A DNA stretch of 32,152 nt. Origin: an uncultured Anaerolineales bacterium (GTDB lineage Bacteria; Chloroflexota; Anaerolineae; B4-G1). The notes below the pieces were generated by a model that worked only from the letters and a program-made list of their open reading frames with translations, was not told the DNA's origin and did no database searches. The DNA lies in contig CAZYSK010000067.1 in the NCBI GenBank assembly GCA_964649415.1, positions 191 to 32,342 of the forward strand. The letters are read 5' to 3'. Made by a program: the position numbers and the translations under genes. How positions within the stretch are numbered: position 1 is the first letter of the stretch; each line of letters begins with the position of its first letter. Positions 1 to 19,688 of the stretch are shown here, one piece after another.

Positions 1-113
1 GCGGTCAGACGGAGGATGGAGCGCCATCGGACGTACGAACAGACGCCCCACCAACCTACGAACCTAGCGATCTACCGAATTCCGATCAAGCGGATCGTCC
101 CAATCCGAGGGTT

Positions 114-1061
114 GTGATGTGCGTAGATGACGATGAAGGAGTGATCGGTCTCTTCCGCCGTTACCTGAGCAGACAGGGCTATCGGGTTGCCAGCCTGACG
201 GACAGCGCAGCGGTGGTGCAGACCGCCCGGCGGCTTCAGCCGTTTGCCATCACCCTGGATGTCGTTATGCCCGGCAAGGACGGCTGGCAGATCATTCAGG
301 AACTGAAGGCCGACACGGCGACACGGCATATCCCGGTCATTGTGTGTACGATCGTAGGTGACAAGAAAGAGCGTGGCCTCAGCCTGGGTGCCGCCGGCTA
401 CCTGATCAAACCGATCCTCGAAGACGACCTGATAGATGCCTTGGAACGTCTAGACCAGGCGGATGCCCGGCATGAAGCGTCAGTGGAAGCGGCCGCTGAG
501 CTTCCCTCAACGGTGGGAAGAAATCGTCTGGAAGAAGAAGCGTGCCGGGTGCTGATCATCGACGACCATGCAGACGACCGAAAGCTCCTACGCCGAATGA
601 TCGAGGGGCAGGATGGTACGGACGTGGAACGGCAGCGTCGATATGAGGTTATGGAAGCCGCCGGAGGCGAAGAGGCCATCACCCTGATTCAGGAGGCCCG
701 TCCCACCATCATCATTCTAGACCTCATGTTGCGGGACATGGATGGCTTCGCTGTCCTGGAATCCATCAAGGGGGATGAAGCCACTCGCTCCATTCCCATA
801 ATCATCGTGACTGCCAAGGACCTGACGCCGGAGGAACAGGACACCCTGCATCGAGGCGCAGAGTCTCTGTTGCAGAAAGGGCTCTTCAAACGGCAGGATC
901 TGTTGGCAGACGTGGCTGCGGCTCTTGAGCGGATGCAGACGTCGACATCTGGCGTCGGGCGTCAGCGGAAGGGCCTTGATCATTCGGACGTTGATCCCGA
1001 CCGTCTGCCCGACCGTCCGCGGTCGACGTCGGCTGCGTCCGAGGCAGAAGACGGAGTCTAG
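114..1061 (+). CDS. Response regulator with two tandem CheY-like receiver (REC) domains. The last ~25 aa are encoded by a family-2 GC-rich repeat. The start may be the ATG at 117, which has a GAGGG RBS.
   Basis: The 315-aa ORF has two REC signatures: VDDDEG...LDVVMPGKDGW...KP, and LIIDDHADD...ILDLMLRDMDGF...IIIVTAKDL. The acidic pocket, phospho-acceptor Asp, conserved Thr and Lys are present in both domains. The ORF ends 5 nt before the next gene. Confidence 0.8.
   Translation: MMCVDDDEGVIGLFRRYLSRQGYRVASLTDSAAVVQTARRLQPFAITLDVVMPGKDGWQIIQELKADTATRHIPVIVCTIVGDKKERGLSLGAAGYLIKPILEDDLIDALERLDQADARHEASVEAAAELPSTVGRNRLEEEACRVLIIDDHADDRKLLRRMIEGQDGTDVERQRRYEVMEAAGGEEAITLIQEARPTIIILDLMLRDMDGFAVLESIKGDEATRSIPIIIVTAKDLTPEEQDTLHRGAESLLQKGLFKRQDLLADVAAALERMQTSTSGVGRQRKGLDHSDVDPDRLPDRPRSTSAASEAEDGV
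987..1041. repeat. Family-2 GC-rich dispersed repeat (GACGTTGATCCCGACCGTCTGCCCGACCGTCCGCGGTCGACGTCGGCTGCGTCCG) forming the C-terminal tail of the tandem-REC gene
   Basis: Related copies at 4055..4127 and 9538..9620 are in the same orientation. The element contains the palindromic CCGCGG / GTCCGCGGTC core. Confidence 0.5.
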
Positions 1062-1066
1062 GAGAA

Positions 1067-2788
1067 ATGAACGAATCTACTGAACAAGAGCGATTCAGAC
1101 ACCAAGTCTGGTTGGAGTGCAAAGCGTGTGGCCATCGAGTCCCATTCACCCATCCCGTGAAGGTGTGTGAGCAATGCGGAGGGGCCTGGATAGACGCCCG
1201 CTACGACTACGAAGCCGTACGGAAACTATGGCCCGCTGCCCTACGCGACCGCCCTTTCGACATGTGGCGGTATCGAGAGCTACTCCCGGTTCGTGACCAC
1301 GCGCACAAGGTGACTATGGGCGAAGGCGGGACCCCCCTGCTCCAGGCAGCCAACCTGGGAATGATGCTGGGCTGTCCGCACATTTACTTCAAAGACGAAC
1401 GCCAGGGACCGACGGGCTCCTTCAAAGACCGACAGGCCGCGCTGGCCATCTCGGTGATGAAGGAGCACGGCGTGATGGAGGCGGTGGTGGCATCTACAGG
1501 CAACGTCGCCATCTCATACTCGGCCTACTCTGCACTGGCCGGCATCAAGATGTGGGCGTTTCTCACCAGCCTGGTGCCCTCGGAGAAGATGCGCGAGGTG
1601 GCTCTCTACGGCAGCGAAGTGGTCAAAGTGACATCCACCTACGACGAGACCAAGAAGGTCGCAGCGGAGTTCGCGGCGCGCAAGGGGCTGTTCCTCGACC
1701 GGGGCATCCGGGGCATCTCGGCCCGAGAGGCCATGAAGACGGTCGCTTTCGAGACAGCTGAACAACTGCCCGCGCTCCTGGGCCTCAGGCCAAGCCATGG
1801 CGACACGCCCTGGCGCACACCGGACTGGTACATCCAGGCAGTGAGTGGAGGAATGGGGCCGGTAGGCGTGTGGAAAGCGTACGAGGAGTTGATGACGCTG
1901 GGCCTGGTCGACCGAATGCCGAGACTGGCGTGCATTCAGGCGGCGGGCTGCGCGCCGATGGTCCACTCATTCCAGAAAGGGCTGGACGAGGCGGAGACGG
2001 TGACCAACCCTCAGACACTGGTCATCACCATCGCCACCGGGAGCCCTGGCCCGGCCTATTCCTACCTGGCCCACGTTATCCGGGAGCATGGCGGCGCTTT
2101 CGAGGCAGTCACCGACGATGAGACGTTCCGTGCCATGCACGTGATGGCCAAGCTAGACGGCATATCAATGGAACCAGCGGCGGCGACAGCTTTCGCCGGG
2201 TTGTTCAAGCTGCTCAACAAGGGCGTCATCGGGCGCGATGAAGTCATCGTTGTCAACTGCTCGGGTCACACGTTCCCGGTCGAGAAGCACCTCCTGGGAA
2301 ACGAATGGGCGCGCACGGTGGAGTTGCCTGCGGAGAAGCCAACCGTCCAGGAAGGAGCCGCTTTGCTTCCCTTTGCAACAGAAGGGCTGCTCGGGACGCT
2401 GGGGCAACTGAACGGGCGGGTCCGGTCAATCGCCATCATCGAGGACGACTCACAAGCCCGGCTGCTGCTGCGGCGCATTCTACAGACGCGCGGCGAATAC
2501 CAGATCTTCGAGGCTCCCGATGGCGCTGCGGGGCTCGAGATGGTGCGCGCCCAACGGCCTGACGTCATCCTGTTGGACCTGATGATGCCAGGCATGGACG
2601 GCTTTGAGGTGTTGGACGCGCTCAAGGATGACGAGCAGGTAAGCGACGTGCCAGTGATCGTCATCACGGCCAAGGAGTTGACTGCGACGGAGCGAGATCG
2701 GCTCAGCAAGCAGACCGAGAAGTTGCTGGAGAAAGGCTCCTTCACCGACGAGGACCTGCTGGAAGAGATTCTGAAGCGGGCATCGTGA
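1067..2788 (+). CDS. Threonine-synthase-like PLP-dependent enzyme (fold type II) with an N-terminal Cys4 zinc-ribbon, fused to a C-terminal REC receiver domain
   Basis: The N-terminus has CKACGH...CEQCGG. The PLP-lysine motif PTGSFKDRQAA matches the ThrC / Trp-synthase-beta superfamily, and there is a glycine-rich SGGMGPVG loop. A ~130-aa linker follows, then a canonical REC domain (IAIIEDD...LLDLMMPGMDGF...VIVITAKEL). Confidence 0.75.
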   Translation: MNESTEQERFRHQVWLECKACGHRVPFTHPVKVCEQCGGAWIDARYDYEAVRKLWPAALRDRPFDMWRYRELLPVRDHAHKVTMGEGGTPLLQAANLGMMLGCPHIYFKDERQGPTGSFKDRQAALAISVMKEHGVMEAVVASTGNVAISYSAYSALAGIKMWAFLTSLVPSEKMREVALYGSEVVKVTSTYDETKKVAAEFAARKGLFLDRGIRGISAREAMKTVAFETAEQLPALLGLRPSHGDTPWRTPDWYIQAVSGGMGPVGVWKAYEELMTLGLVDRMPRLACIQAAGCAPMVHSFQKGLDEAETVTNPQTLVITIATGSPGPAYSYLAHVIREHGGAFEAVTDDETFRAMHVMAKLDGISMEPAAATAFAGLFKLLNKGVIGRDEVIVVNCSGHTFPVEKHLLGNEWARTVELPAEKPTVQEGAALLPFATEGLLGTLGQLNGRVRSIAIIEDDSQARLLLRRILQTRGEYQIFEAPDGAAGLEMVRAQRPDVILLDLMMPGMDGFEVLDALKDDEQVSDVPVIVITAKELTATERDRLSKQTEKLLEKGSFTDEDLLEEILKRAS

Positions 2789-2825
2789 CGGCACTCCGGC
2801 GGAGACCTGACGGGGCGAACAAAAA

Positions 2826-2976
2826 GCATGGAGCGCCATCGGAATGGCGCCTTCAAATGGAGCATGGAGCGCCATCGGAATGGCGCCTTCAAATGGAGCA
2901 TGGAGCGCCATCGGAATGGCGCCTTCAAATGGAGTATGGAGCGCCATCGGAATGGCGCCTTCAGATAGAGCATGGA
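2826..2976. repeat. Family-1 hairpin repeat: four tandem copies of a 36-bp unit (ATGGAGCGCCATCGGAATGGCGCCTTCAAATGGAGC) containing the perfect palindrome GCGCCATcggaATGGCGC
   Basis: Four directly abutting units fill the intergenic space between the ThrC-REC gene and the hybrid HK gene. A partial copy is also present at 15..32 of the window. Confidence 0.85.
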
Positions 2977-4447
2977 TCAAGCAATCAAAGTACTATACGT
3001 GGAAGACGATCCGGCAAGTGTGACGTTGGTGCGTCGCGTGCTCGAGAATGAAGGTTACCAGATTGTCGCCGCCCCTGATGGCCTTTCGGGCATCGAGGCA
3101 GCCAGGCAGGAACTGCCGGACCTGATCCTGATGGATATCGACGTCGGAGGACTGGACGGCTACGAGGTGAGCACCAGGCTACGGAGCATCGAGGAACTGA
3201 AGAAGGTACCCATCGTGGCCGTCACTGCCGCACGCATGCGCGGCGACCGAGAACGAGCGCTCATAGCCGGTTGCACTGGCTACATCCCCAAGCCCATCGA
3301 CGTAGATACATTCTCGGAGCAAGTGCGTTCTTTCCTCCGGGGGACCAAGGAGGATGTTGAGTCGGCGGAGGAGAAAGCGGGGTACCTGGTCGAGTACAGC
3401 CATAGGCTGGTGGACCGATTGGAAAAGAAACTGCGCGAGCTGGAGAAGGCTCATGCGGATCTCCAGCGCTTGGATAAGATGAAGACGGACTTCATCATCC
3501 TGTCCAGTCACGAACTTCGCACCCCTCTCACCGCCATTTATGGCTACGCCCAGATTCTCCGATCCAACCCCGCCATCCCCGGCTCCGCCGATGATGCTGG
3601 CAGTCCACGCTGCATCGTAGAGAGGATGGCGGAAGCGACGTGGCGCTTGAACCAGGTGATAGGCGATATCCTCAACGTCGCGCTGCTTGACGCCCGGGAA
3701 CTGGACCTGGCGACAGAGCCGGTCTTCCTGGACTCTCTGATACACAAGGCCGTGCGGAGCATCAGCGACTCAGCGCCTGATCGGCAACTGACCTTCGATC
3801 TCGGAGGGCTAGATAACCTCCCGCGGGTGACAGGGGACTCGAAACGCCTGTACCAGGCACTGTGGAACGTGATCAGCAACGCGGTGAAGTACACGCCCGA
3901 CGGAGGGCGTATCCGTATCACAGGAGATCAGATCGAGGATACGGCGCACGTGGCTGTCCAAGACAATAGGGGGCAGGATACAGGAGTACCACGGATAGGA
4001 GAAATACACGATGGGAGAGGCGGAGGGCAGGAGGCAGGAGGCAGGGAGACGGCAGACATTAACCCCGACCGTCTGCCCCCGACTGTCCGCGGTCGGCACC
4101 GTCCGCGGTCGACGCCGGCTGCGTCCGTGCACGTGGTCGTCCAGGACAGTGGAGTAGGAATTCCTCCAGAGGATCAGGAACGCATCTTTGATCGCTTCTA
4201 CGTGCTGGAGAACACGGATCTCCACTGCTCCAGCAAGACGGCGTTCAAGGGGGGCGGGTTGGGCGTTGGGCTCACCGTAGCACGGGGCATCATCAGAGCG
4301 CACGGGGGCAGAATCTGGGCAGAAAGCGAAGGGTACGACGAAGAGCGGCTGCCGGGCAGTACCTTCCACATCCTCCTGCCGCAGAGACAGGAAGAAGCGG
4401 GAGGCAAGAGGCAAGAGGGGTCGCCGGACATGCTGACAGATTGGTGA
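2972..4447 (+). CDS. Hybrid sensor histidine kinase: N-terminal REC, then HisKA (H-box SHELRTPLTAI) and HATPase_c, with a 61-codon in-frame repeat insertion before the G1 box
   Basis: The REC domain reads VLYVEDDP...LMDIDVGGLDGY...KP. The H-box is FIILSSHELRTPLT. The N-box-like segment is VISNAVKYTPDGGRIRI. The G1 box DSGVGIP and G2 box GGGLGVGL are present. The ORF is continuous across the insertion. Confidence 0.8.
   Translation: MDQAIKVLYVEDDPASVTLVRRVLENEGYQIVAAPDGLSGIEAARQELPDLILMDIDVGGLDGYEVSTRLRSIEELKKVPIVAVTAARMRGDRERALIAGCTGYIPKPIDVDTFSEQVRSFLRGTKEDVESAEEKAGYLVEYSHRLVDRLEKKLRELEKAHADLQRLDKMKTDFIILSSHELRTPLTAIYGYAQILRSNPAIPGSADDAGSPRCIVERMAEATWRLNQVIGDILNVALLDARELDLATEPVFLDSLIHKAVRSISDSAPDRQLTFDLGGLDNLPRVTGDSKRLYQALWNVISNAVKYTPDGGRIRITGDQIEDTAHVAVQDNRGQDTGVPRIGEIHDGRGGGQEAGGRETADINPDRLPPTVRGRHRPRSTPAASVHVVVQDSGVGIPPEDQERIFDRFYVLENTDLHCSSKTAFKGGGLGVGLTVARGIIRAHGGRIWAESEGYDEERLPGSTFHILLPQRQEEAGGKRQEGSPDMLTDW
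3965..4129. repeat. In-frame 183-bp composite insertion (purine-rich GGCAGGAGG repeats plus a family-2 GC-rich repeat), flanked by an 18-bp imperfect direct repeat at 3947..3964 and 4130..4147
   Basis: CACGTGGCTGTCCAAGAC and CACGTGGTCGTCCAGGAC match at 15 of 18 positions and flank the element. At protein level HVAVQD is duplicated as HVVVQD. Removing the insertion restores a canonical ..TAHVAVQDSGVGIP G1-box context. Confidence 0.55.
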
Positions 4448-4513
4448 GCCGGCGGGCCTTAGCGTAAACCGACGGTCCGGATCGTTCCAATCCGTGGATA
4501 TCCCGCGGCAGGC

Positions 4514-5431
4514 CTAACCGTGCTTCCACTCCAGGGGCTCGTTGCCCTGCGCCAGGTGCATACCCGGATCGCGCATCATCAATACCATGCCAACGACCAA
4601 CAGCGCGCCGCCGATCCATTGCACCGGCGACAGACGTTCACCCAGCAGCAGAAAGGCAAGCGCCAGGCTGATTAGCAGTTCGAGCAGGCCGAACAAAGCT
4701 GTCTCCACGCCTCCCACCCGCTGCAATCCACTGAACATCGCCAGCCGCGACAGGGCAGTCGTCAGTCCTAGCGCCAATATAGCGGATAGACCGGAAGGTG
4801 TGACGGGCTCCACCGGCTGTCCCTCCAACACCCGTGCCAGACCCACCACACCCGCCATGGCGGTCAGTATGTACAGCGTAGCGGTACGGGATGGCACATC
4901 GGCCAACACCCACTGCCCCAACACCAGATGCCAACCGTAGATAGCCGCCGACGCGACCATCATAGTCACTCCCAGCCAGTCCAACTTGCCCGTCCCTGAG
5001 CGCGTCAACAGAAAGACTCCCAGCATCGAAAGCGCCAGGCGAGCCAACGTGAGCATCGTCAGTGGCTGCCCAGATGCAAAGAGGAATAACACGACCCACA
5101 GCGGATAGAGCGTGTTGAGCAACGCGGCGAGGGAAGCGTCGAGACGCGAGAGGCTGGTGTAGTAAAACAGGGAGCCCAAACCATTGACTGCCCCCACACT
5201 GATGCACCCAAGCAGCCCACGCCAGGAGATGACAATCTCTCGACGCCACAAGAGCGCGAAGGCCAGCCAGATCAGAACGGCTGCGACAGCCGTCCGAAGT
5301 GCGGCGAGGGTGAAGGGCGTGACCCCGCTCCGATAAGCGAACTTGCCCAGAATGGGCGCCCAGCCAAGAAAGAAACTGGCCATACACGTGCTCACGATCC
5401 CATGACGCTGCTCGCGGCTCAAATGGTCCAT
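4514..5431 (-). CDS. DMT-superfamily (EamA-like) 10-TM transporter. The likely start is MDHLS at 5431 with a GGGAG RBS. The ORF extends to 5497.
   Basis: The ORF has about 10 hydrophobic helices in two repeated halves (EamA-like). The amino-acid composition is typical of drug/metabolite transporters. Confidence 0.7.
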   Translation of the reverse strand: MDHLSREQRHGIVSTCMASFFLGWAPILGKFAYRSGVTPFTLAALRTAVAAVLIWLAFALLWRREIVISWRGLLGCISVGAVNGLGSLFYYTSLSRLDASLAALLNTLYPLWVVLFLFASGQPLTMLTLARLALSMLGVFLLTRSGTGKLDWLGVTMMVASAAIYGWHLVLGQWVLADVPSRTATLYILTAMAGVVGLARVLEGQPVEPVTPSGLSAILALGLTTALSRLAMFSGLQRVGGVETALFGLLELLISLALAFLLLGERLSPVQWIGGALLVVGMVLMMRDPGMHLAQGNEPLEWKHG

Positions 5432-5487
5432 CTCACTCCCATCGGTTCCAGGCGGGCGCGGGGACCGCGCCCCTACGCGGTGGCTTG

Positions 5488-5645
5488 TGGACGCCATCAG
5501 AATGGCCTTCTTGGGTTGATCGGGGCCATCAGAATGGCCTTCTTGGGTTGATCGGGGCCATCAGAATGGCCTTCTTGGGTTGACTAGGGCCATCAGAATG
5601 GCGTCCTTGAACAGGACTGGTGCGCCACCGGAATGGCGCCATCCT
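5488..5645. repeat. Family-1 hairpin repeat array: three and a half tandem copies of a 32-bp unit (GGCCATCAGAATGGCCTTCTTGGGTTGATCGG) followed by a GCGCCACCGGAATGGCGCC variant
   Basis: The units are directly abutting and the GGCCATcagaATGGCC palindrome is visible. The array lies in the divergent intergenic region between the transporter and the 5684 ORF. Confidence 0.85.
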
Positions 5646-5683
5646 ATTGCGCGATGACGGCGTTTGTGATACACTCGCGCTTG

Positions 5684-6373
5684 ATGACTCAGAGACAAAG
5701 ACATACGATTGCCGCGCTGGCGATCGCCAACATCGTCATTATTCTCGCCTTGTCAGTGCTCGTGGCACCGTCTACCGGTGGGCGCAGTGACCGTGCCCAT
5801 TCCATCGTGAAGGGAAGCGATGCGGCCCATTCCACTATGGAGGGAAGCGAAGCGGCTCCTACCACTGTGAAGGGAAGCGAAGCGGCCCCCGGCCACGAAG
5901 ACCACGCCCCTGTTGAGCTGGTGTGCCAATGGAAAGCCACGCAGTTGCTCGCTCAAGCCGGCCTGGGCGGCAAACTGACCCTGGCTCCTGATGGACCGCT
6001 CCAGGTCGAGATCACCACAGACCTGACAGGGCAGATGCCACGGACGCATGCACCCGGTGGAGAACCTGTCAGGTCCGTTGACGAGGCCGCCCATTCCACC
6101 ATAGAGGGAAGCGAAGCGGCCCAATACGTATGGACAGCCTTCGACATCGCACTGGCCTTGCTGGAACAGGAGAAGGAATGCGCCACATTCACACAGGTCG
6201 AAGTCAGGATTCTGGCGCACGGCCACACCACCACTACGCAGATCAGCGCGATCGTCAATACGGCTGACCTGTCATCTTTCAGCGCAGGTGAACTCAGCGA
6301 GGACGCGTTCATCGAGCGCGTGGAATACACAAGCACCGCGATAAGTGAGAACGGATTGTTCCGATCCGAGTAA
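5684..6373 (+). CDS. Hypothetical membrane-anchored protein whose central region is built from 30-bp family-1-like repeats (the ORF extends upstream to 5633)
   Basis: The N-terminus has a TM helix, IAALAIANIVIILALSVLV. Three or more tandem 30-bp units (GCGGCCCATTCCACTATGGAGGGAAGCGAA) encode the repeat AHSTMEGSEAA. The C-terminal ~90 aa look protein-like. The upstream ATG at 5633 lies inside the repeat array. Confidence 0.35.
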   Translation: MTQRQRHTIAALAIANIVIILALSVLVAPSTGGRSDRAHSIVKGSDAAHSTMEGSEAAPTTVKGSEAAPGHEDHAPVELVCQWKATQLLAQAGLGGKLTLAPDGPLQVEITTDLTGQMPRTHAPGGEPVRSVDEAAHSTIEGSEAAQYVWTAFDIALALLEQEKECATFTQVEVRILAHGHTTTTQISAIVNTADLSSFSAGELSEDAFIERVEYTSTAISENGLFRSE

Positions 6374-6399
6374 GAGTATAGCACACTCGTTCCATCGGC

Positions 6400-6625
6400 A
6401 CAAGAGGGCAGGAGGCAGGAAGCAGGAAGCAGGAGGCAAGGGACAGGGATGAAAGACAGCGCGCCATCGGAATGGCGCCGTCTGATAATGGATGGCGCGC
6501 CATCGGAATGACGCCGCCTGATGGGGGATAGTGCGCCATCGGAATGACGCCGCCTGATGGGGGATAGTGCGCCATCGGAATCGCGCCGTCTGATGATGGA
6601 TGGTGCGCCACTGGTCAGAATGGCA
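6400..6625. repeat. Purine-rich GGCAGGAGGCAGGAAGCAGGA tract followed by four tandem ~37-bp family-1 units (GCGCCATCGGAATG(A/G)CGCCGCCTGATGGGGGATAGT)
   Basis: The array is directly visible and lies immediately upstream of the GH-like gene. The units degenerate toward the 3' end. Confidence 0.85.
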
Positions 6626-6648
6626 AGTCCAAAAGGGGTAAAGACACG

Positions 6649-9165
6649 GTGAAGCGATTGGTTCTGATGTGCGTCGCGGCCTTGCTGCTTCTGGTGGCTG
6701 CCGGTGCGCCATCAAAACGGTGCGCCATCGGAATCGCGCCGCCTGATAGGAGGTGGCACGCCATCGGGCGCACGGACAGCCGCAGCGTCCACAGAATGGA
6801 TCGCTTCGGCTCCCTCTACAGCGGAATAGCGACGTCCCAACAGGAATGGCCGGTGCGAACTCTGCACTCCGGCTATCACTTCCTCCCACCCTACGCGAAT
6901 CCCCGCGACCGCTTCGGCTTCGACTCGGGGAGCGACCTGACCACCTACGCAGTGGAGCAACTCCAGGCCGGTTGGTATAGCGATTGGAATACCAACCTCA
7001 ACCCACCCCACCCTGATGGCCTGACCTACGTCCAACTGGTGCGGCTCCACGCCGGGGCCGATCCGCAAGACCCAACCCAGGTCACAGTGGCTCCCAGCCC
7101 GGAGATCATCGCCCAGATCGCGGCCGCACACCCGGGATCCCTGTGGCTCTTGGGCAACGAGCCGGATTCCCTCTACTGCGGCAGTCCGATCTACCCTGCA
7201 GTGTACGCCCACGTCTACCACGACGTCTACACAACCATCAAGGCACTGGACCCCAGCGCACTGATCGCCAACGGCGCTGTTGTCCAGCCCACGCCCTGTC
7301 GTCTGGAGTACCTGGACATCGTGTGGGATACGTATGTCCAGGCCTACGGCGAGCCGATGCCGGTGGACGTGTGGAACACGCACGCTTTCATCCTGCGCGA
7401 GGTGTACGGCTCATGGGGTGCCAGCACACCACCGGGTGTGGACCCAGGCTGCGGCGTCGCTTATCCTGTCTACGACGGCGATAACGTGGACGTGATGCGA
7501 GATCACCTCGTGGCCCTGCGCCAATGGATGAAGGACAAGGGAGAACAGAACAAGCCCCTGATCATCAGCGAGTACGGCGTGCTGTGGCCAGAGTGGTTCG
7601 TGGACGAGCGGGGACAGGCTTTCACGGCTGCCCGGGTGAGCCAGTTCATGACCCAGACCTATGACCTGTTTCTAAACGAGACCTACCCGGATATCGGTCT
7701 TCCCCAGGACGAATACCGGCTGGTGCAAGCCTGGGCCTGGTACAGCCTGTCCGACGACCAAGACTACAACGGCTACTTGTTCCACAGCAACTCCAAGGAA
7801 ATCTCCCCAATAGGTCAAGCGTACGCCGACTACACCGCCGCCCTGACGGACACGCAGTACACCGACCTGACCGCCCAACTGTGGGCGGACGTAGAGCCGC
7901 TGGCACACCTCACCCCAACCCTACCCTACGACGCGCCATCAGAATGGAGCCTTTGTGGAGATAGCGGTGCGCTGACCGCGACGCTTCCAGTGACGGGAAT
8001 CGTCGCCAATCTCGGTCCGTTGACCGCCACAGGCGTGGTCATCGCATGCCCAGGGTCGGGATGCCAGCTCATCCAGGATGTGCCTGGACGATATGTGGAG
8101 GACATCGCCCCGCTGCCGCTGCCGACGCTTGCCATCACCGCACCCGGGGTATACGATCTGTCGCTCGTCGCCGACGCGCCGCAGTCGCTGCCCGACGTAC
8201 GCCGCTGGAACAACTCAAGCACCGTCAGCGTGGACGCTAGAGCCGATCTGACGGTCTTGGAAGCAGTCTGGTGCATCCATTCCCAGGAGCCCGCGAGCGA
8301 TGTGCTCTCCGTCACCCTGACGGTGGAGAACGAAGGGCTCTGGCCCACGCCGCCCATTTCCGGCGCGCTGCACTTGAACAACGCCCAAGGCTCCCTGGTC
8401 CCGACGGTGCGGCAGGTCTCCGTCCCGGCCATGGGATCTCGTGCTCGAGCAGTTTCGCTCCAGGAGATGCCCCTTCCCGGTTCCAGTGAGGATCTGTACC
8501 GTCTGACGATTGACGTAGACAGCGCTGCGGTCCTGGACGAGCAGGATGAGAGCAACAACCAGGCCCAGATTCCGATTCCCATCGTCGTCACGACCACGCT
8601 GCAACCCACCGCCACCGGCGCGCTAACCTCGGCCAGCGGCCACACAGCCTTCTTGTTCCCGGCCACGTCAGTGACGCTGCCCACAGAGATACGTTTCACG
8701 CCGCTCCTGACGTCTGAATTGCCCCCAGGCCCACCATTGGGCGTGTCGGCGTTTGACCTGCGCGCCTATCGGGGTGGCGAACCTGTGTCCCCAACGCTAT
8801 CCTGTCCCATCACCGTCACCTGGCAGTACAGCGATACGGAGGTGACAGGGCTGTACGAGAGCGGCCTGGGCCTGTATAGCCTGGCATCAGACGGCCTTTG
8901 GCAACGTGTGTACCACCCGGTCGAGCGACACGATCTGGAGATGAACCGGCTGAGTACCTGCGTCCACCACTTGGGCACGTATGTCTTTGGACAGGGCGAC
9001 GAAATCTATTTCCCATCCATGCTGCTCGGCCCAGAGCTAGGAAACTGGCTGAGACACCAAGGTCTTGAGAAAGCGCCAGTTTCTCCTGCCGTCTCTGCTG
9101 CAGGAAGTTGTCCCTCCGGTCTTCCGCCGCGACTGACACCGAACGTGTCCCCTGCAGGATACTGA
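6649..9165 (+). CDS. Secreted glycoside-hydrolase-like protein (clan GH-A TIM-barrel motifs) with a C-terminal CARDB-like domain. A family-1 repeat sits in-frame directly after the signal peptide.
   Basis: The signal peptide is MKRLVLMCVAALLLLVAAGA. WLLGNEPD is an acid/base NEP-type motif and LIISEYGV is a nucleophile-Glu-type motif. The CARDB signature is ADLTVLEAVW...NEG...DEQDESNNQAQIPI. Residues 18-45 are encoded by GCGCCATC.. repeat units, and DAPSEWSL at 7925..7948 is another repeat copy. Confidence 0.6.
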   Translation: MKRLVLMCVAALLLLVAAGAPSKRCAIGIAPPDRRWHAIGRTDSRSVHRMDRFGSLYSGIATSQQEWPVRTLHSGYHFLPPYANPRDRFGFDSGSDLTTYAVEQLQAGWYSDWNTNLNPPHPDGLTYVQLVRLHAGADPQDPTQVTVAPSPEIIAQIAAAHPGSLWLLGNEPDSLYCGSPIYPAVYAHVYHDVYTTIKALDPSALIANGAVVQPTPCRLEYLDIVWDTYVQAYGEPMPVDVWNTHAFILREVYGSWGASTPPGVDPGCGVAYPVYDGDNVDVMRDHLVALRQWMKDKGEQNKPLIISEYGVLWPEWFVDERGQAFTAARVSQFMTQTYDLFLNETYPDIGLPQDEYRLVQAWAWYSLSDDQDYNGYLFHSNSKEISPIGQAYADYTAALTDTQYTDLTAQLWADVEPLAHLTPTLPYDAPSEWSLCGDSGALTATLPVTGIVANLGPLTATGVVIACPGSGCQLIQDVPGRYVEDIAPLPLPTLAITAPGVYDLSLVADAPQSLPDVRRWNNSSTVSVDARADLTVLEAVWCIHSQEPASDVLSVTLTVENEGLWPTPPISGALHLNNAQGSLVPTVRQVSVPAMGSRARAVSLQEMPLPGSSEDLYRLTIDVDSAAVLDEQDESNNQAQIPIPIVVTTTLQPTATGALTSASGHTAFLFPATSVTLPTEIRFTPLLTSELPPGPPLGVSAFDLRAYRGGEPVSPTLSCPITVTWQYSDTEVTGLYESGLGLYSLASDGLWQRVYHPVERHDLEMNRLSTCVHHLGTYVFGQGDEIYFPSMLLGPELGNWLRHQGLEKAPVSPAVSAAGSCPSGLPPRLTPNVSPAGY

Positions 9166-9453
9166 GTGCCACATCCCACGTCATCACTGGCTGCATCGGA
9201 GTGGGGAGTAGACACTAGGCTGGCTCACCCCGCGGCAGACTACCGCGCGTCTGGTGGGGAAGGCTGACAGATAGTGGCCTGCCTCGCTTCGTCCAGACAG
9301 ATTCCATCTGGGGATTGGCAATCGGCCTGACGCCCCTTATGCCCGCGATTCTGCTCACGACAAGGGTGACGGCAGGATGGTGACGGTCGAGTTCGCCCTG
9401 GTTCGTGGTTCCTCTCTGCAGCGGGGCCAGGAATCAGACACGGACGTCCGCGT

Positions 9454-10746
9454 TCACCGGAAGTTGAGCCCCGGCAGGAACGAGGGCAGGGGAAACAGCG
9501 CCGGGATGATCTCACCCAACGTGCCTGAGACACTGCGGACATTGATCGTGCGTCCGCGGACGTTGACCGTGCGTCCGCGGACATTGATACCGACCGTCTG
9601 CGGTCGGCTGCGTCCGTCCGCTGGCGCTCCCATCACCAGCCGCGTTATCTCACCCCCGTCCAGTTCGAGCCGCTCCCGACCCAGCACGGCGCGAAACCGG
9701 TCCCCCTCCTGCTCAAAGCGAAGCCCGCGCCAAAGGCGCGCGTCGAAGCACGCCTCAACGTAGTCCCGGAGGTCGGACATCAGGCCAGGAAGATTGACAA
9801 TGCGCATGGTGTGCTCGGGCAGAGGCAGACGCACTCCGGCGACACCCCGTTCGTGAAGCAGACGCAGGAAGTCCGCATCCTGCCAAGGCACGAACATCCG
9901 CAGTCCCCGCAGATCCAGCCGGGCCATAACCTCGGCCAGCGCGCCGGCGAGCGCAACCCGGCTGCCAGCATACTCGTACACCTCCCGCACGCCCGAGTCC
10001 GGCTCGCGCAGATTCTCCCAGGGGAAACTCAGGAACAGGTAGGCCACCGGGCGACCTCTCAGTTCCACAATCCAATCCTCCGCCTGGGGGAACTCCTCAG
10101 GTTGGCAGAAGTGCCGGGTGAACACCTCTACACACCGCACAAAGCGCACCGGCTCTGTCTGGTAAAGACGGGAGCACAGAGAGGCATCCGACTCGGTCGC
10201 CGGGCGGAGCGCAAGGCCGTCTACCCTCAGATCGACCTGACCGGGCTTGAGCACCACGTGCTCAAACTCCTGGGAAGCGACACAGCCAGCCCGCCTGTAG
10301 AGCTCGCGGTCACCAGAGACGAGCATCAGACGAGCACCTTCGGCGGTCAATTGGCGGGCGCAGTGATCGAGCAGCCGTGTGGCTAGTCCTAGACCCCGGT
10401 AGTCCGGGTGGGTACACACGCTGCCGATGCTGGCGACGCGCAAGGGGCTGCCGTACACGCTGACCTGACTGTGCCAGATGCCGATCTGGGAGACAGGTTC
10501 CCCCTGGTGGCAGATGACCTGCATCCCACCACGCCGGGGCGGGGTGTGCGCGGATTCGCCGCACGCGGAGGCAGTTTCCCCCAGATGCAGTCCGTCCGCC
10601 TGCTCAGCCTCCCCCGCAAACTCCGGGAAGCACAACGCATCCAGTCGCCGCGAGGCCACCAGCTCCTCCCGCCGGAGGAGGCGCGGCCCGTCCAGATCAT
10701 CCAAGGAGATCGAACACCCAGTATCCATATCCATCATTGCAGTCAA
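9454..10746 (-). CDS. GNAT-family N-acetyltransferase, Eis-like (GNAT plus a second GNAT-like lobe plus an SCP2-like C-terminus). The last ~45 aa are encoded by a family-2 repeat.
   Basis: The acetyl-CoA binding motif is SVCTHPDYRGLGLATRLLDHC. The ~400-aa length and three-lobe layout fit Eis-like enzymes. The C-terminal tail VRGRTVNVRGRTINV comes from the tandem 21-bp repeat. Confidence 0.6.
   Translation of the reverse strand: MTAMMDMDTGCSISLDDLDGPRLLRREELVASRRLDALCFPEFAGEAEQADGLHLGETASACGESAHTPPRRGGMQVICHQGEPVSQIGIWHSQVSVYGSPLRVASIGSVCTHPDYRGLGLATRLLDHCARQLTAEGARLMLVSGDRELYRRAGCVASQEFEHVVLKPGQVDLRVDGLALRPATESDASLCSRLYQTEPVRFVRCVEVFTRHFCQPEEFPQAEDWIVELRGRPVAYLFLSFPWENLREPDSGVREVYEYAGSRVALAGALAEVMARLDLRGLRMFVPWQDADFLRLLHERGVAGVRLPLPEHTMRIVNLPGLMSDLRDYVEACFDARLWRGLRFEQEGDRFRAVLGRERLELDGGEITRLVMGAPADGRSRPQTVGINVRGRTVNVRGRTINVRSVSGTLGEIIPALFPLPSFLPGLNFR
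9538..9620. repeat. Family-2 GC-rich repeat with an internal 21-bp tandem duplication (CGTGCGTCCGCGGACGTTGAC x2) containing the 10-bp perfect palindrome GTCCGCGGAC
   Basis: The element shares GACATTGATACCGACCGTCTGC and GGCTGCGTCCG with the copies at 987 and 4055. Confidence 0.5.
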
Positions 10747-10811
10747 CGCAGAGGCTGTGAGGACACCCTGTGCCTATGGACGGCACCATCATTCCGCCAG
10801 CGGATGAGGTT

Positions 10812-13100
10812 TCATCGTGCATCCGGTGACGCTTCTTCCGCGTCCAGCCGCTCCAGGCGCGCGATATCCGCCATCAGCCGCTTCAGCCCGGCCTCGTCGA
10901 AGACCACCGTCACCATCTCGTCGCCGCCGTCGGGCCGGCTCTGGATGACCAATCCATCGCCGAAGGTCGCGTGCCGCACGCGCTGGCCTGCACGGAACTG
11001 CAACTCGCTAGAGGGGCGAGCGCGAACGCGGGAGAAACCGGGGCCTTCCCGAAAACCTTGGGTTCTGCTCCTGGGCGCGGCCACCACGCCCGTTGCGGGC
11101 TTTGATCGTGCGCGCGCGCCTCTACGTCCCCACGAACCACCAATCAGCTCAGGGGGAACGTCCTCCAGGAACCGGCTGGGCACCGAGGGCTCGCTTTCGC
11201 CGTAGCGGGTACGCCGGAAGGCGTAGGTCAAGAAGAGCCGATCCTCGGCACGCGTCAGCCCGACGTACATCAGTCGCCGCTCCTCGGCCATCTGCTCGGG
11301 ATCGTCCAGGGAGCGGCTGTGAGGAAGCAGGCCATCCTCCAGGCCGGTGATGAAAACGACCGGGAATTCCAGTCCCTTGGCGCTATGAAGCGTGAGCAAA
11401 GTCGGTGCATCCGCCTCGTCGCTCAGGTTGTCCACGTCCGAGACGAGCGCGACGTCAGCCAGGAACTCGGTCAACGTCATGTCCTCGTACTCGGCGGCCA
11501 CGTTGCGGAGCTCCAGCACGTTGGCCCAGCGATCCTCGCCTTCCTCGGTGCCATCGCGCAGATAATCGCCGTAGCGGGTGTCCTGCAACACGCGATCTAT
11601 CAACTGCGCCACATCCATGGCATCGCGTGCGGAGATCCAACCTTCCAGCATCTCCAGGAATGACTCCAACACCCGCCGCGCCCGCGCGCCCAGCTTCGGG
11701 CCCTGGCCCGTCGCGTCGACCACGTCCTGGATCACCTCGTAAACCGAAACGCCGCGTGTCCGCGCCGTCTCCTCCAGCGCCGCCACCGTCTTCTGGCCAA
11801 TGCCCCGGGGCGGGACGTTGATCACCCGCGCCATACTCACGCCCTCTGTGGGATTGTGGATCAGCCGTAAGAAGGCGATCAAGTCCTTGATCTCGCGGCG
11901 GGCATAGAACCGGGTCGCCCCGACCAGCTTGTAGGGCAGGCCCGCGCGGATGAAGGCATCCTCCAGTGCACGCGACTGGGCGTTCGTCCGATACATCACC
12001 GCGCAGTCGCCGGGGTGCCCCCCCTCCTGGGCGACCAGTTGGGCGATGGTATTCACCACGAACAAGGCCTCGTCGTCCTGGTCGTAGGCCTCGTGGACGA
12101 CGATCTCGGGGCCACGCCCCCGGCGCGTGAACAGCGACTTGTCCGTCCGATCGGGATTGTGACGGATCACCGCGTGGGCGGCGTCCAGAATCGTCTGCGT
12201 CGAGCGATAATTCTGCTCCAGGAGGATGGTGAGGAGGTCGGGGTAATCGTCCCGCAGGCGGCGGATGTTGCGATAGTCCGCGCCTCGCCAGGCATAGATG
12301 GACTGATCCTCATCGGCGACGCAGAAGAGGTTGTGATAACGGCTCGCAAGCTGCTGCAACAGCGCGTATTGAGCCTGATTGGTGTCCTGAAACTCGTCCA
12401 CCAGGATGTACCGGTAGCGCTCCTGATACTTGGCCAGTACATCCGGGTTCTGCCTGAAGGCCCGCACAGTCACCATCAGCAAGTCATCGAAGTCAAGCCC
12501 GCTGTTGGCCGCCAGCAGGGCCTGGTAGCGTTCGTAGATGCGCTTGACGACCTCACCGTAGTAGGAGCCGGTGGTGTATGCCTCCGGCGTGATCAGCTCG
12601 TTCTTGGCCCGAGAGATGGCCCCATGCACCGCCTGGGGACGATAGCGCTTGTCGTCCAGGTTCAGGTCGCGGATCGCCTGCTTGACCAGGCGACGCTGGT
12701 CATCGGCGTCGAAGATGGCGTAGTCGCGCGGGATACCCGCGGCGTCGGCATCGCGGCGCAAAATACGGGCGCACGTGGCGTGGAACGTGCCCAGCGTGAG
12801 ACTGCGAGCGCGAGAGGGTCCAAGTAACCGCTCCAGCCGCTCTCGCATCTCACGGGCCGCCTTGTTGGTGAAGGTGACCGCCATGATGCGCCAGGGGGCG
12901 ACGTCTAGCTCCAGAACCAGCCAGGCGACGCGGTGTGTGAGCACGCGGGTCTTGCCGCTGCCCGGCCCGGCCAGCACCAGCACCGGGCCGTCGGATGCGG
13001 TGACGGCTTTCTGTTGTTGAGGGTTGAGTCCTTTGAGAGTGTCCACGGCGTCAGATTGTAACACAGGTGCACACAGCGCGCCAGTCTTGCCGTTCGGCAA
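10812..13100 (-). CDS. pcrA: ATP-dependent DNA helicase, PcrA/UvrD family (SF1). The ORF-finder start is TTG, and the true start may lie a few codons downstream.
   Basis: Walker A is AGPGSGKTRVLTHR. Motif II/III is DEFQDTNQAQY. The conserved GLNPQQQKAV N-terminus and a C-terminal Tudor-like extension are characteristic of PcrA/UvrD. Confidence 0.88.
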   Translation of the reverse strand: MPNGKTGALCAPVLQSDAVDTLKGLNPQQQKAVTASDGPVLVLAGPGSGKTRVLTHRVAWLVLELDVAPWRIMAVTFTNKAAREMRERLERLLGPSRARSLTLGTFHATCARILRRDADAAGIPRDYAIFDADDQRRLVKQAIRDLNLDDKRYRPQAVHGAISRAKNELITPEAYTTGSYYGEVVKRIYERYQALLAANSGLDFDDLLMVTVRAFRQNPDVLAKYQERYRYILVDEFQDTNQAQYALLQQLASRYHNLFCVADEDQSIYAWRGADYRNIRRLRDDYPDLLTILLEQNYRSTQTILDAAHAVIRHNPDRTDKSLFTRRGRGPEIVVHEAYDQDDEALFVVNTIAQLVAQEGGHPGDCAVMYRTNAQSRALEDAFIRAGLPYKLVGATRFYARREIKDLIAFLRLIHNPTEGVSMARVINVPPRGIGQKTVAALEETARTRGVSVYEVIQDVVDATGQGPKLGARARRVLESFLEMLEGWISARDAMDVAQLIDRVLQDTRYGDYLRDGTEEGEDRWANVLELRNVAAEYEDMTLTEFLADVALVSDVDNLSDEADAPTLLTLHSAKGLEFPVVFITGLEDGLLPHSRSLDDPEQMAEERRLMYVGLTRAEDRLFLTYAFRRTRYGESEPSVPSRFLEDVPPELIGGSWGRRGARARSKPATGVVAAPRSRTQGFREGPGFSRVRARPSSELQFRAGQRVRHATFGDGLVIQSRPDGGDEMVTVVFDEAGLKRLMADIARLERLDAEEASPDAR

Positions 13101-15448: not shown

Positions 15449-15662
15449 ACCCCATCCACAGCCGACGTCGACCGCGTGCAACCGAGGGCGTGTTGCGCAT
15501 TTGGCAACGGGCGGCGGGGTGACTACCCAAACTGAGTCTTCTGTGGTATAGTTGCACTGGTCAGGTCTGGGCCAGAGACCCCCCAATAAGAAGCCAGGTT
15601 TGTCACTGTCGAATTGTTAACAAGAAACCGGGTTTTTCGGAAAGACCTGGTTTCTGCTGCTG

Positions 15663-17229: not shown

Positions 17230-18732
17230 TTACACTTGATGGATGAGGATGGGCGACAGCCACGTGGTATCGTTGCGATCAATGGACAATTCGCACCTTG
17301 CATGCCAAAGCGCAACTTCTGGTCTGCCCTGGTCCAGCAGGGACTTATAGAAGGCCAGGGCCAATCGCCGAGCGCCGTCGTCGGATACAGGCCAGCGATA
17401 GCCCACCACCGAGGGCACACCGGCCTGGGCGACTGCATCGGCCAATCCGAGGAAGTCATCATCGAGCAGAGCAACCTTTCCACCCGACGCTGTGCCGTAG
17501 CAACTGCTCAGATAGACGAGGCGCACCCCCGATTGCCCAAGTAGCAGCCTGACTTCGGTCGCCCGCATAGGCACGATGCCCCCTTGCTTGTCCGCCTCAG
17601 CCCAGAAGTAGAGGCTACTTTCTTCGGGAGAGTCGGCCTCATAGGAACCATGCCCTGCATAATGTACCACGTCGTAGTTCTGTGCCTTCAACTCTGCTCT
17701 GACGCGTTCGTATGTGGCTTGTTCCGTGGCGATGAGCTTCACGTCAACCGGGATACGATCCTGGCCTTTCAAATAACTGGATAGCTCTTGTGCCTCGGCA
17801 TCAGCCCCATCAATCGGAGGCAGAGTCTTCGAAGTCGTGTTCGACGCGATGATCAGCACGCGCAGTTCTTTCGTCAGTGCCAGCACGCGAGGCGAGATCG
17901 CTTCGCGCTTTGGGGTAGCCTCACACACAAACCGGGCAAGCGGATGCTGAAGCACCAGGTATTCCTGAGGGGCATCCGAGTACATGAACTCCATTGGAAG
18001 ACACACATACTCCCTGGGAGTCTCAAATTGCAGCGAGAGCAACTGGCTGCTGGCACGGGCCGTCAGATAGGTCTCTTTGGCCTCGGGTTGCTCACCGAAT
18101 ACGTCACGCCATAGGTCGCGACCGATCTGCTCGACCTGCAAACGCAGGTTGTTCCAGTCTTGCCTGGCAACTTCGGTCCTCCTCGCATATCGCTCGACGT
18201 CTAGCACCAGCGCCCTGCCCGACCGCCGGGAGCAAACGTGATAGCCACGCGATCTTATCGCCAAGTGCTGCCTTGCCACAAGAGACAGGGACAGCCTGGA
18301 TTCATCGCCGAAATTCTTAAGCTGTGGTTCTCTTGGCTCGTCGCATATCCCCGGCCTGTCTCTCGTCTCCGCGATGATCTCCAAGACTTGTTTGACCACA
18401 TCTGGCGTCTTCTCGACGAATTGCTCTACCCCAAGATACCGAATCGCGCGGACGATTTGCTTGGCCCTCACATAGCGCGTTAGCAAGATGACGTGGACCT
18501 TCGGATCCAGAGCGCGGAAAGCCATCGCCAGACTCGAACCACTTTCGTCCTCCTCGCCACCTTCGTGCAGACGTACATCAATGAGCGCAAAATCGAAGGG
18601 CTCCTGTATGACCGCGTCCAGTGCCTGTCCCTCATTGGATGCCACCCGCACGGTATGCCCCTCATCGGAGAGCCGCCCGCGCAATGTATCCCGGAAGTCA
18701 GGCTCATCGTCTACTACCAGTATCTTGTACAT
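17230..18732 (-). CDS. Response regulator with N-terminal REC and C-terminal CHAT (caspase-like) protease domain. The start is MYKIL at 18732 with a GAGGGGG RBS. The ORF extends to 18834.
   Basis: The REC domain reads ILVVDDEPD...LIDVRLHEGGEEDESG...ILLT...K. The CHAT His/Cys dyad context is VVHYAGHG and RLVYLSSCYGT, with the typical ~400-aa CHAT layout. Confidence 0.75.
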   Translation of the reverse strand: MYKILVVDDEPDFRDTLRGRLSDEGHTVRVASNEGQALDAVIQEPFDFALIDVRLHEGGEEDESGSSLAMAFRALDPKVHVILLTRYVRAKQIVRAIRYLGVEQFVEKTPDVVKQVLEIIAETRDRPGICDEPREPQLKNFGDESRLSLSLVARQHLAIRSRGYHVCSRRSGRALVLDVERYARRTEVARQDWNNLRLQVEQIGRDLWRDVFGEQPEAKETYLTARASSQLLSLQFETPREYVCLPMEFMYSDAPQEYLVLQHPLARFVCEATPKREAISPRVLALTKELRVLIIASNTTSKTLPPIDGADAEAQELSSYLKGQDRIPVDVKLIATEQATYERVRAELKAQNYDVVHYAGHGSYEADSPEESSLYFWAEADKQGGIVPMRATEVRLLLGQSGVRLVYLSSCYGTASGGKVALLDDDFLGLADAVAQAGVPSVVGYRWPVSDDGARRLALAFYKSLLDQGRPEVALWHARCELSIDRNDTTWLSPILIHQV

Positions 18733-18797
18733 CGCTACGCCCCCTCGCGCCATCGCCTGCGACTGTGGAAAAGGATCACCGGACAAGCCACTCAGAC

Positions 18798-19688
18798 TCA
18801 CTCGACTGCGTCCCACCTCTCCCGTATGTAGCACATGGCCGCCCTAACATCCAGGTTCCGCGTCGAATTGCCCATACGCACCCAGAACTCGTGAGAGTCA
18901 CCCTTGCCCAAGAAAACCGGCCTTGGGCTTTCGTCAATGGAGACGGCGCAGATGCGCTTGCCATCCATCAACTCGAAACGTGGGTGGATATACAGCACGT
19001 ATTCCGCACCCAAATTGACCTGGACAATATCGGTCAGCAACAGTTGGAATCCGTCGATATCTGACTTGCGCAGGGTCTGCAAGTCTCTTTCAATACCCAG
19101 TATCGTGCCATCGTCAGCGACGCCAAGGAGCAGATGCCCGCCCCCGCAATTCAGCATCCCGGCTATCGCCCTGGCAATCTCCTCCTGCAATCTCTTGTTG
19201 ACTCTGTTCTGCCTGTAGTCCCAACGAATACTGGACTTAAACTCCACCCGGTCATTCTCACCCTGGGCGATCAATTCGACGACATCTGGGGCCGCGCATT
19301 CAACCGCGCGCTTCACATATCCCGGCAATTGACTCACTTCGGATTTCTCCAGGAAGCCAAAGGCTGGCGCAACCCCGTCGTGGTCCGGTTGGAGGGCCTC
19401 ACGCACCATCTTGACGTCCGCGTAGCCGGTCAAGATGATGATAGCCACGCTGGGGTCCTTCTCTCTGATCTCGTGCATGAGCACAAGGCCGTCGCGGTTT
19501 TCTTCGTCAGCCTCGTCCAGGCGGACGTCCAGGACTGCGACGTGAAAACGCTCGGCATCCACCATGTGCAGAGCTTCGGCTCTGCTGGACGCCAAGCGTA
19601 CGTCGTAACCATCGTCTGACAGAAGACCCGACAGCGTCACGCGCACGTCGGGCAGATCATCCACGACAAGAACGCGCCCTCTGTGCAC
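18798..19688 (-). CDS. Response regulator with N-terminal REC and C-terminal AlbA_2 (Schlafen-like) domain. The start is GTG.
   Basis: The REC domain reads VLVVDDLPD...VLDVRLDEADEENRDG...IILTGY...EKS. The C-terminal segment ENDRVEFKSS...AIAGMLNCGGGHLLLGVADDGTILGI...FWVRMGNSTRNL matches the AlbA_2 / Schlafen core. It lies 24 nt downstream of the preceding REC gene. Confidence 0.7.
   Translation of the reverse strand: MHRGRVLVVDDLPDVRVTLSGLLSDDGYDVRLASSRAEALHMVDAERFHVAVLDVRLDEADEENRDGLVLMHEIREKDPSVAIIILTGYADVKMVREALQPDHDGVAPAFGFLEKSEVSQLPGYVKRAVECAAPDVVELIAQGENDRVEFKSSIRWDYRQNRVNKRLQEEIARAIAGMLNCGGGHLLLGVADDGTILGIERDLQTLRKSDIDGFQLLLTDIVQVNLGAEYVLYIHPRFELMDGKRICAVSIDESPRPVFLGKGDSHEFWVRMGNSTRNLDVRAAMCYIRERWDAVE

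Follow-up and report, generated by a model that had tools for sequence, protein, structure and literature searches.

Putative composite repeat insertion in frame within the catalytic domain of a hybrid histidine kinase gene of an uncultured Chloroflexota bacterium

Organization of the locus

The window, by which the whole analyzed stretch of 32,152 nucleotides is meant, includes a gene for a hybrid histidine kinase with repeat DNA situated in frame within its HATPase_c domain. The features of the gene, and the means by which they were delimited, are as follows:

2972-4447, + strand: hybrid histidine kinase gene, REC-HisKA-HATPase_c, 491 aa (ORF and translation, Pfam, fold match)
3946-3967, + strand: left target copy, codons ..A H V A V Q D N (repeat search, alignment, AlphaFold)
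3968-4018, + strand: left segment outside the repeat family (BLAST and profile comparison)
4019-4051, + strand: purine-rich GGCAGGA/GGCAGGAGG module, the repeats proper at 4019-4048 (repeat comparison)
4052-4127, + strand: full-length copy of the repeat family here called family-2, model positions 1-76, encoding ADINPDRLPPTVRGRHRPRSTPAAS (nhmmer, BLAST)
4129-4150, + strand: right target copy, V H V V V Q D S (repeat search, alignment, AlphaFold)
4397-4447, + strand: non-conserved C-terminal tail of the kinase (..EEAGGKRQEGSPDMLTDW*) (alignment, module comparison)

The closest matches of the kinase were hybrid kinases of Chloroflexota MAGs (with Thermoflexia and Anaerolineae labels), 413-462 aa in length, and the host was assigned to the Chloroflexota by its best protein matches. 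Pfam identified HisKA and HATPase_c, the latter as two stretches split by the insert, and the Foldseek matches were HK853 and WalK, the core superposing on HK853 (TM 0.8). The alignments showed that the H box (H180) and the N (N299/N303), G1 (D392-G394-G396), F (F406/F409) and G2 (G427-G433) residues are retained, and with these boxes and the Bergerat fold the protein belongs to the HisKA type. In the protein the order is ..IEDT-AHVAVQD-(55 aa)-HVVVQD-SGVGIP... The tail at 4397-4447 consists of the purine-rich module followed by a family-2-like start, GCCGGACATGCTGA.

Duplicated target and empty site

The insert is bracketed by a direct duplication, CACGTGGCTGTCCAAGAC (3948-3965) and CACGTGGTCGTCCAGGAC (4131-4148), with 15 of the 18 positions identical. 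The repeat search widened it to GCACGTGGCTGTCCAAGACA (3946-3965) and GCACGTGGTCGTCCAGGACA (4129-4148), identical at 17/20 positions and spaced by 183 nt or 61 codons, and by eye it reaches 18/22 (3946-3967 and 4129-4150). When three or fewer mismatches were allowed, the 20-mer was found at these two sites only in the window, the expectation from shuffles being 0.02. The 183-bp in-frame repeat element with flanking duplication described in the earlier note is present, and the ORF is open across all its 1476 nt despite this 61-codon insert. Deleting the 183 bp yields ...EDTAHVAVQDSGVGIP..., the same as in the orthologues, which bears out the claim that excision would restore a normal motif. The net gain is 61 aa, composed of 55 aa and a 6-aa duplicate, and the Gly/Arg/Pro-rich loop of 55 aa that had been proposed was recovered as a loop, disordered in AlphaFold, while its length understates the net addition.

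In orthologue alignments of 18 and 68 sequences the 61 residues were present in none of the others, and the insert was absent from 67/67 aligned orthologues (413-462 aa). The closest homologue, P0002, has 77% identity and is syntenic: its locus (L137) shares the gene order PAS/GAF protein, PALP-REC, kinase, EamA, hypothetical and CARDB with the window. The empty site reads GCA CAC GTC GCC GTC CAG GAT AGT GGG in the DNA of L137. The orthologue comparison that had been suggested for the insertion therefore does not indicate an ancestral loop, and the aligned sequences support a lineage-specific, frame-preserving insertion of repeat DNA inside the catalytic domain. Recombination between paralogous kinases was rejected, both flanks aligning with the same syntenic orthologues, and so was a degenerate tandem duplication of kinase sequence, 76 nt of the insert being a canonical family-2 copy.

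A chimeric assembly joined through repeats would be conceivable in a repeat-rich region where nearby tandem arrays differ in copy number between assemblies. The identical 491-aa product was nevertheless encoded on eight contigs, which derive from different samples assembled at ENA, JGI and Logan, and 301 nt around the insert were 100% identical across three loci (L001-L003), with the frame preserved. Because of these eight contigs and three identical regions an assembly artefact is very unlikely, to the point of being negligible.

The differences between the duplicates at 3/20 positions could reflect either age or an imprecise event. The duplication may also be longer and interrupted, and the left junction may show a GGAGTA microhomology; both are indistinguishable from chance.

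Make-up of the insert

Sequence comparison shows the insert to be a mosaic of intergenic or start-region modules and one full family-2 element. Within the left segment, positions 3983-4011 were identical at 28/29 positions to positions 11704-11732 of a related locus (L114), where a membrane glycosyltransferase-like gene begins and the matching stretch covers its Shine-Dalgarno sequence, its ATG and its initial codons (MGEIHE). In the kinase these positions are translated as IGEIHD, in the same frame as MGEIHE of L114. An internal restart of translation from the Shine-Dalgarno-like GGAGAAATACACGATG was rejected, the ATG at 4012 being out of frame and, as read by eye, opening an ORF of only about 49 codons.

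The purine-rich module also adjoins palindromic arrays, at 6404-6443 in the window and 9668-9707 in L114, in addition to its occurrence in the 3' tail of the kinase. The family-2 copy itself (4052-4127) recurs at 984-1041, 9577-9620 and 15459-15476, so that the window holds three to four copies. In these recurrences of purine repeats and palindromic part the composition proposed in the earlier note was found again. The right junction of the insert is the exact canonical family-2 terminus (..GCGTCCGTG|CACGTGG), and at the left junction there was no recognisable end. BLAST and profile searches of 343 kb found no family-2 membership for the left 86 nt (3966-4051), and the sampled 343 kb yielded no donor in which the 163 nt (3966-4128) are contiguous.

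DNA folding of the whole 203-nt region was no better than that of shuffles (z -0.13), so the complete insert does not form a single large palindrome. Searching proteins with the peptide of 55 aa encoded by the insert gave no candidates, and phmmer, run exhaustively on 1.84 billion representatives, had 0 matches at E <= 0.001. Rfam, searched with window positions 1-12000 at E <= 1, returned nothing. A genome-contig scan with the pattern CCGCGGTCGACGYCGGCTGCG produced 79 single chance matches, all in unrelated high-G+C taxa.

The family-2 element

The family-2 consensus is GCGGACATTGATCCCGACCGTCTGCCyCCGACCGTCTGCGGTCGGCACCGTCCGCGGTCGACGTCGGCTGCGTCCG, a unit of about 76 nt bounded by GCGGAC...GTCCGC. 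Its inner part, CCGACCG-TCTG-CGGTCGG, forms a hairpin, and an outer pairing joins GCGGAC with GTCCGC. DNA-fold z-scores ranged from -0.6 to -3.6 per copy, the partly degraded copy of the kinase having z -1.65. A pattern derived from the palindromic part identified 54 loci in JGI metagenomes, nearly all in the Ga0180429-436 series to which the contig also belongs, and nhmmer found 80 matches in 343 kb of related metagenome DNA, including about ten copies of 74-89 nt at 84-90% identity and dozens of shorter variants. The related loci come from one metagenome series and possibly represent more than one closely related population. The intergenic regions of the organism are built from several short modular repeats.

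When the flanks of 70 family-2 arrays were examined, the best direct repeats averaged 5.6, compared to 5.4 for shuffled flank pairs. The 20-22 nt duplication, with its 18-bp core, is therefore specific to the kinase event and is not a target-site duplication of the family. It also follows that the family spreads without target duplication, as REPs do. No transposase was present among the window ORFs scanned.

These results bear on the reading of the whole 165-bp unit as a classical MITE, i.e. a non-autonomous transposon with an 18-bp target-site duplication. Such an element would account for the significant flanking duplication and for the exact family-2 terminus at the right end, and a purine-rich head precedes a family-2 copy also at L114 9668-9823. 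As a unit, however, only 4052-4127 recurs, and the left 86 nt are without a family. The repeat search found no terminal inverted repeats in the 165-bp unit, family-2 alone having only the 6-7 nt GCGGAC/GTCCGC terminal pairing, and the fixed-length target duplication that would be expected at all copies of a MITE was seen at the kinase event only. A duplication of 18-22 bp is moreover unusually long for IS or MITE transposition. A family with defined ends accounts for 4052-4127 alone, the rest of the insert being made of other modules. The insert is therefore not the single MITE-like element that had been suggested, and a classical MITE is improbable.

Family-2 inside genes

Of the unique family-2 matches, 27/65 (about 40%) were located in ORFs that showed the GC3 signature of coding sequence and extended for 60 codons or more to either side. 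A looser count placed 22/56 arrays in long ORFs, compared to 52% for random positions. Host genes were recognized by Pfam domains on both sides of the element or by a domain split by it, and included the following:

L135: second REC-HisKA-HATPase_c kinase
L125: HAMP domain
L102: YkuD domain
L100: Guanylate_cyc domain
L108: UvrA (51-nt units)
L090 and L103: GAF kinases

In the uvrA gene of L108 (3676-3880) the in-frame array consists of one family-2 unit and three 51-nt units, in which a purine-rich GGGAGGCGGGCAGGAT module is nested between GCGGAC and GCGTCC. The array adds about 70 extra residues between UvrA_inter and UvrA_DNA-bind.

Two further copies of the window are associated with coding sequence:

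984-1041, + strand: family-2 copy forming the C-terminal extension (SDVDPDRLPDRPRSTSAASEAEDGV*) of a large PAS/GAF/REC protein
9535-9620, + strand: family-2 short units (21-nt period) and one longer unit (repeat search)

The first provides an extension of about 30 aa and the stop codon of a protein of more than 2200 aa, the L137 orthologue of which ends before the extension; the absence of family-2 inserts from orthologues was checked for two window genes only, this one and the kinase. The second is translated in reverse, giving ..QTVGINVRGRTVNVRGRTINVR.. close to the C-terminus of the product of a GNAT acetyltransferase ORF (9454-10746, minus strand).

All the coding copies in the same orientation as their gene (17/17) use one frame, ADIDPDRL..RSTSAAS. 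Of the alternatives, frame 2 is open and unused and frame 3 has a TGA. This single peptide frame, together with the insertion having been kept in the kinase long enough for the duplicates to diverge, could suggest that the loop is an adaptive functional addition, e.g. a disordered region with a docking or regulatory role, as opposed to tolerated junk. Against this, family-2 DNA is present also in intergenic regions, is found in either orientation and affects proteins and domains that are unrelated to one another, and neither the protein search nor phmmer found a homologous peptide anywhere else. The observed frame bias is what would result if purifying selection removed insertions read in the alternative frame, which is hydrophobic and rich in Cys and Arg, and we regard an adaptive loop as decidedly improbable.

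Structural position of the insert

The AlphaFold2 models, run with 68 sequences, describe the predicted fold and give no verdict on folding kinetics or autophosphorylation. In the model of the window kinase, strands 313-321 and 385-392 (SVHVVVQD) are separated by residues 324-382 with pLDDT of about 27, and the remaining catalytic domain has pLDDT 80-94. The insert-free P0002 is modelled with a tight hairpin (313-322 and 326-334) and is otherwise the same, which agrees with the suggestion that the kinase may still fold. In the solved catalytic domain of YycG there are 4 residues at the insert position, compared to 63 in the query.

According to the models and YycG, the insert lies in the beta-hairpin turn that directly precedes the G1 box. 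It had been assigned to the ATP lid, which is instead formed by residues ~405-430 and is separately flexible in the model (410-430). The right target copy is predicted to be the working strand feeding the G1 box (D392-x-G-x-G). The left copy, in which the ancestral Ala is kept, is placed by AlphaFold in the disordered part, and together with the patch it is predicted to form a Gly/Arg/Pro-rich loop of about 59 residues, probably directed away from the ATP pocket. The same hairpin turn carries inserts in two orthologues, 13 aa in P0017 (PGTCGLKATRF) and 9 aa in P0102. No second copy of the P0017 insert was found within the surrounding 7.3 kb. Other lineages have in-frame additions of their own elsewhere in the protein, the orthologues P0038 and P0039 having a 30-aa GSES-rich insert after the H-box helix.

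It may be asked whether the insertion inactivated the kinase and left a young pseudogene that is still open. The 61-aa insert splits HATPase_c beside the G1 box, the duplicated strand could compete for pairing, and the deviations of the query at conserved columns are slightly above the orthologue average: it differs at 9/104 columns conserved in at least 90% of the sequences, the other sequences at 4.6 +/- 3.0 (max 12). Yet it differs at only 1/92 columns that are invariant in the other sequences, and only one of its departures from the conserved columns falls within the catalytic domain. The residues of all five boxes are kept. The ORF has remained intact despite the divergence already seen between the duplicates, several samples carry the identical sequence, AlphaFold predicts an unaltered core, and the hairpin turn accepts inserts also in P0017 and P0102. 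Inactivation is accordingly considered unlikely, and the models point to a tolerated disordered surface loop in a kinase that is probably still functional.

Origin of the insertion

The explanation that we find probable is a lineage-specific event in which composite repeat DNA, selfish or neutral, entered a surface beta-hairpin turn of HATPase_c in frame, the kinase most likely working. Family-2 has spread widely, coding sequence included, where only stop-free insertions of a multiple of three survive and the copies in gene orientation show one hydrophilic frame. In the kinase, a 163-nt patch, in which a piece resembling a start region is joined to GGCAGGA purine repeats and a complete family-2 copy, would have been copied into the ..HVAVQD|SG.. 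codons, along with a target duplication of 20-22 nt. The patch probably entered by templated or illegitimate insertion and not by cut-and-paste transposition. It may have arrived in one templated step, through template switching or through illegitimate repair at a staggered break, or it may have accreted stepwise, and because the contiguous 163-nt donor was not found in the 343 kb sampled the two are inseparable.

A more far-reaching version is conceivable, if doubtful: family-2 might be an undescribed REP-like family in a Chloroflexota lineage, colonising genes about as heavily as Rickettsia palindromic elements (RPEs) do (~40% in ORFs, in one frame), and the kinase event a separate templated patch route, by template switching or target-primed copying, that brought in the repeat and unrelated flanking DNA, a Shine-Dalgarno and start-codon piece from another gene, with the 20-22 nt duplication and did not involve transposition.

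Comparison with known repeat systems

RPEs are dispersed palindromic repeats found in intergenic regions and frequently in frame in unrelated genes (Ogata et al. 2000, as summarized in PMC10969869 and PMC3733652), with a conserved peptide, a preferred frame and positions compatible with the protein fold (PMC10969869, PMC3733652). Family-2 resembles them in being dispersed and palindromic, in its intergenic and in-frame copies in unrelated genes and in its one preferred peptide frame; multi-copy dispersal, hairpin units, in-frame copies and a preferred frame, by which an RPE-like class can be recognized, were all observed. The systems differ in the host, which here is a free-living sediment organism of the Chloroflexota whereas RPEs belong to a reduced intracellular genome, and in the element, family-2 being high in G+C, about 76 nt long and modular. 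Unlike an RPE, the kinase insertion is also composite, with non-family DNA and a 20-nt target duplication. Judged from the G+C-rich consensus and the other phylum, homology of family-2 to RPE-1..10 is unlikely.

Intragenic REPs (GTAG- and CGTC-tagged) are short hairpin repeats in ORFs, single, dimeric or clustered, that add 20-82 extra residues, the clusters encoding 43-82 residues; they lack target-site duplications, and uvrA is one of their recurrent host genes (PMC3733652). Family-2 likewise comprises short hairpins in ORFs without target-site duplications, and uvrA is decorated in L108. The GTAG/CGTC REPs are defined by a terminal tag, an 8-9 bp stem starting with A/T, a loop of 4-5 nt and a CCA tail (PMC3733652). 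In contrast, the family-2 consensus has no GTAG, CGTC only internally and no CCA tail, and compared to the four CGTC families its stems are 7-bp, of G+C only and without an A/T start, with loops of 4 or 9 nt (9 in the outer).

Among bacterial MITEs, Coxiella QMITE1, ERIC, BOX and the Anabaena MITEs make in-frame fusions (PMC5896051, PMC10969869). The likeness lies in a small mobile non-coding repeat fixed in frame in a gene with a peptide segment added. MITEs, however, end in inverted repeats and are flanked by a duplication of fixed length for which the transposase of the parent IS is responsible, and neither feature was seen in the 165-bp unit or in family-2 as a whole. By function the kinase insert belongs with the RPEs and intragenic REPs.

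Gene-borne selfish DNA is already known from Rickettsia and other bacteria. The present case extends it to uncultured free-living Chloroflexota, a phylum and a lifestyle in which the habit has not been highlighted, and offers a clean natural example with the empty site available from a syntenic orthologue and the structural position defined. The tolerance of the hairpin turn before the G1 box for large inserts may make it useful for placing tags in histidine kinases. Annotators should expect repeat inserts that split Pfam domains and lengthen proteins in MAGs. The passenger DNA, and a 20-nt duplication that is peculiar to this event, suggest that repeats may enter genes by a route other than transposition.

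Other repeats and genes

Several other repeats were observed in the window and in related loci. Tandem arrays of a 36-nt unit with the hairpin GCGCCATCGGAATGGCGC were located at 2825-2976 and 6461-6610, with a further stretch at 6714-6767. The first of these runs into the start codon of the kinase (2972), and one unit lies within the 5' end of ORF 6649-9165. The spacers containing the arrays differ by 32 and 36 nt between L001 and L002, which shows that the copy number varies in the population. A 32-nt tandem array (hairpin GCCATCAGAATGGCC, 3.7 copies) is present at 5493-5609, between the EamA gene and ORF 5633-6373, and its unit was found also in 11 other loci of the metagenome series.

ORF 5633-6373 encodes a small membrane-anchored protein with no Pfam match, 246 aa in length compared to 184 aa in the syntenic L137 orthologue. 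It includes a 30-nt in-frame repeat (5795-5888 and 6082-6120) that gives the peptide repeats AHSxxxGSEA.

In L114 a further repeat family, ACGCGTCTCCCA..GTAGGGGCGCGGT..CCGCGCCC..CCCTGTGAAGC, was present at 9620-9668 and, on the minus strand, at about 1960-2010. It forms a terminator-like hairpin, with the purine-rich module directly after it.

On the minus strand of the window, positions 17230-19688 contain two adjacent overlapping genes, REC-CHAT and REC-Schlafen/AlbA_2, in which REC is combined with protease-like and Schlafen-like modules, an unusual pairing.
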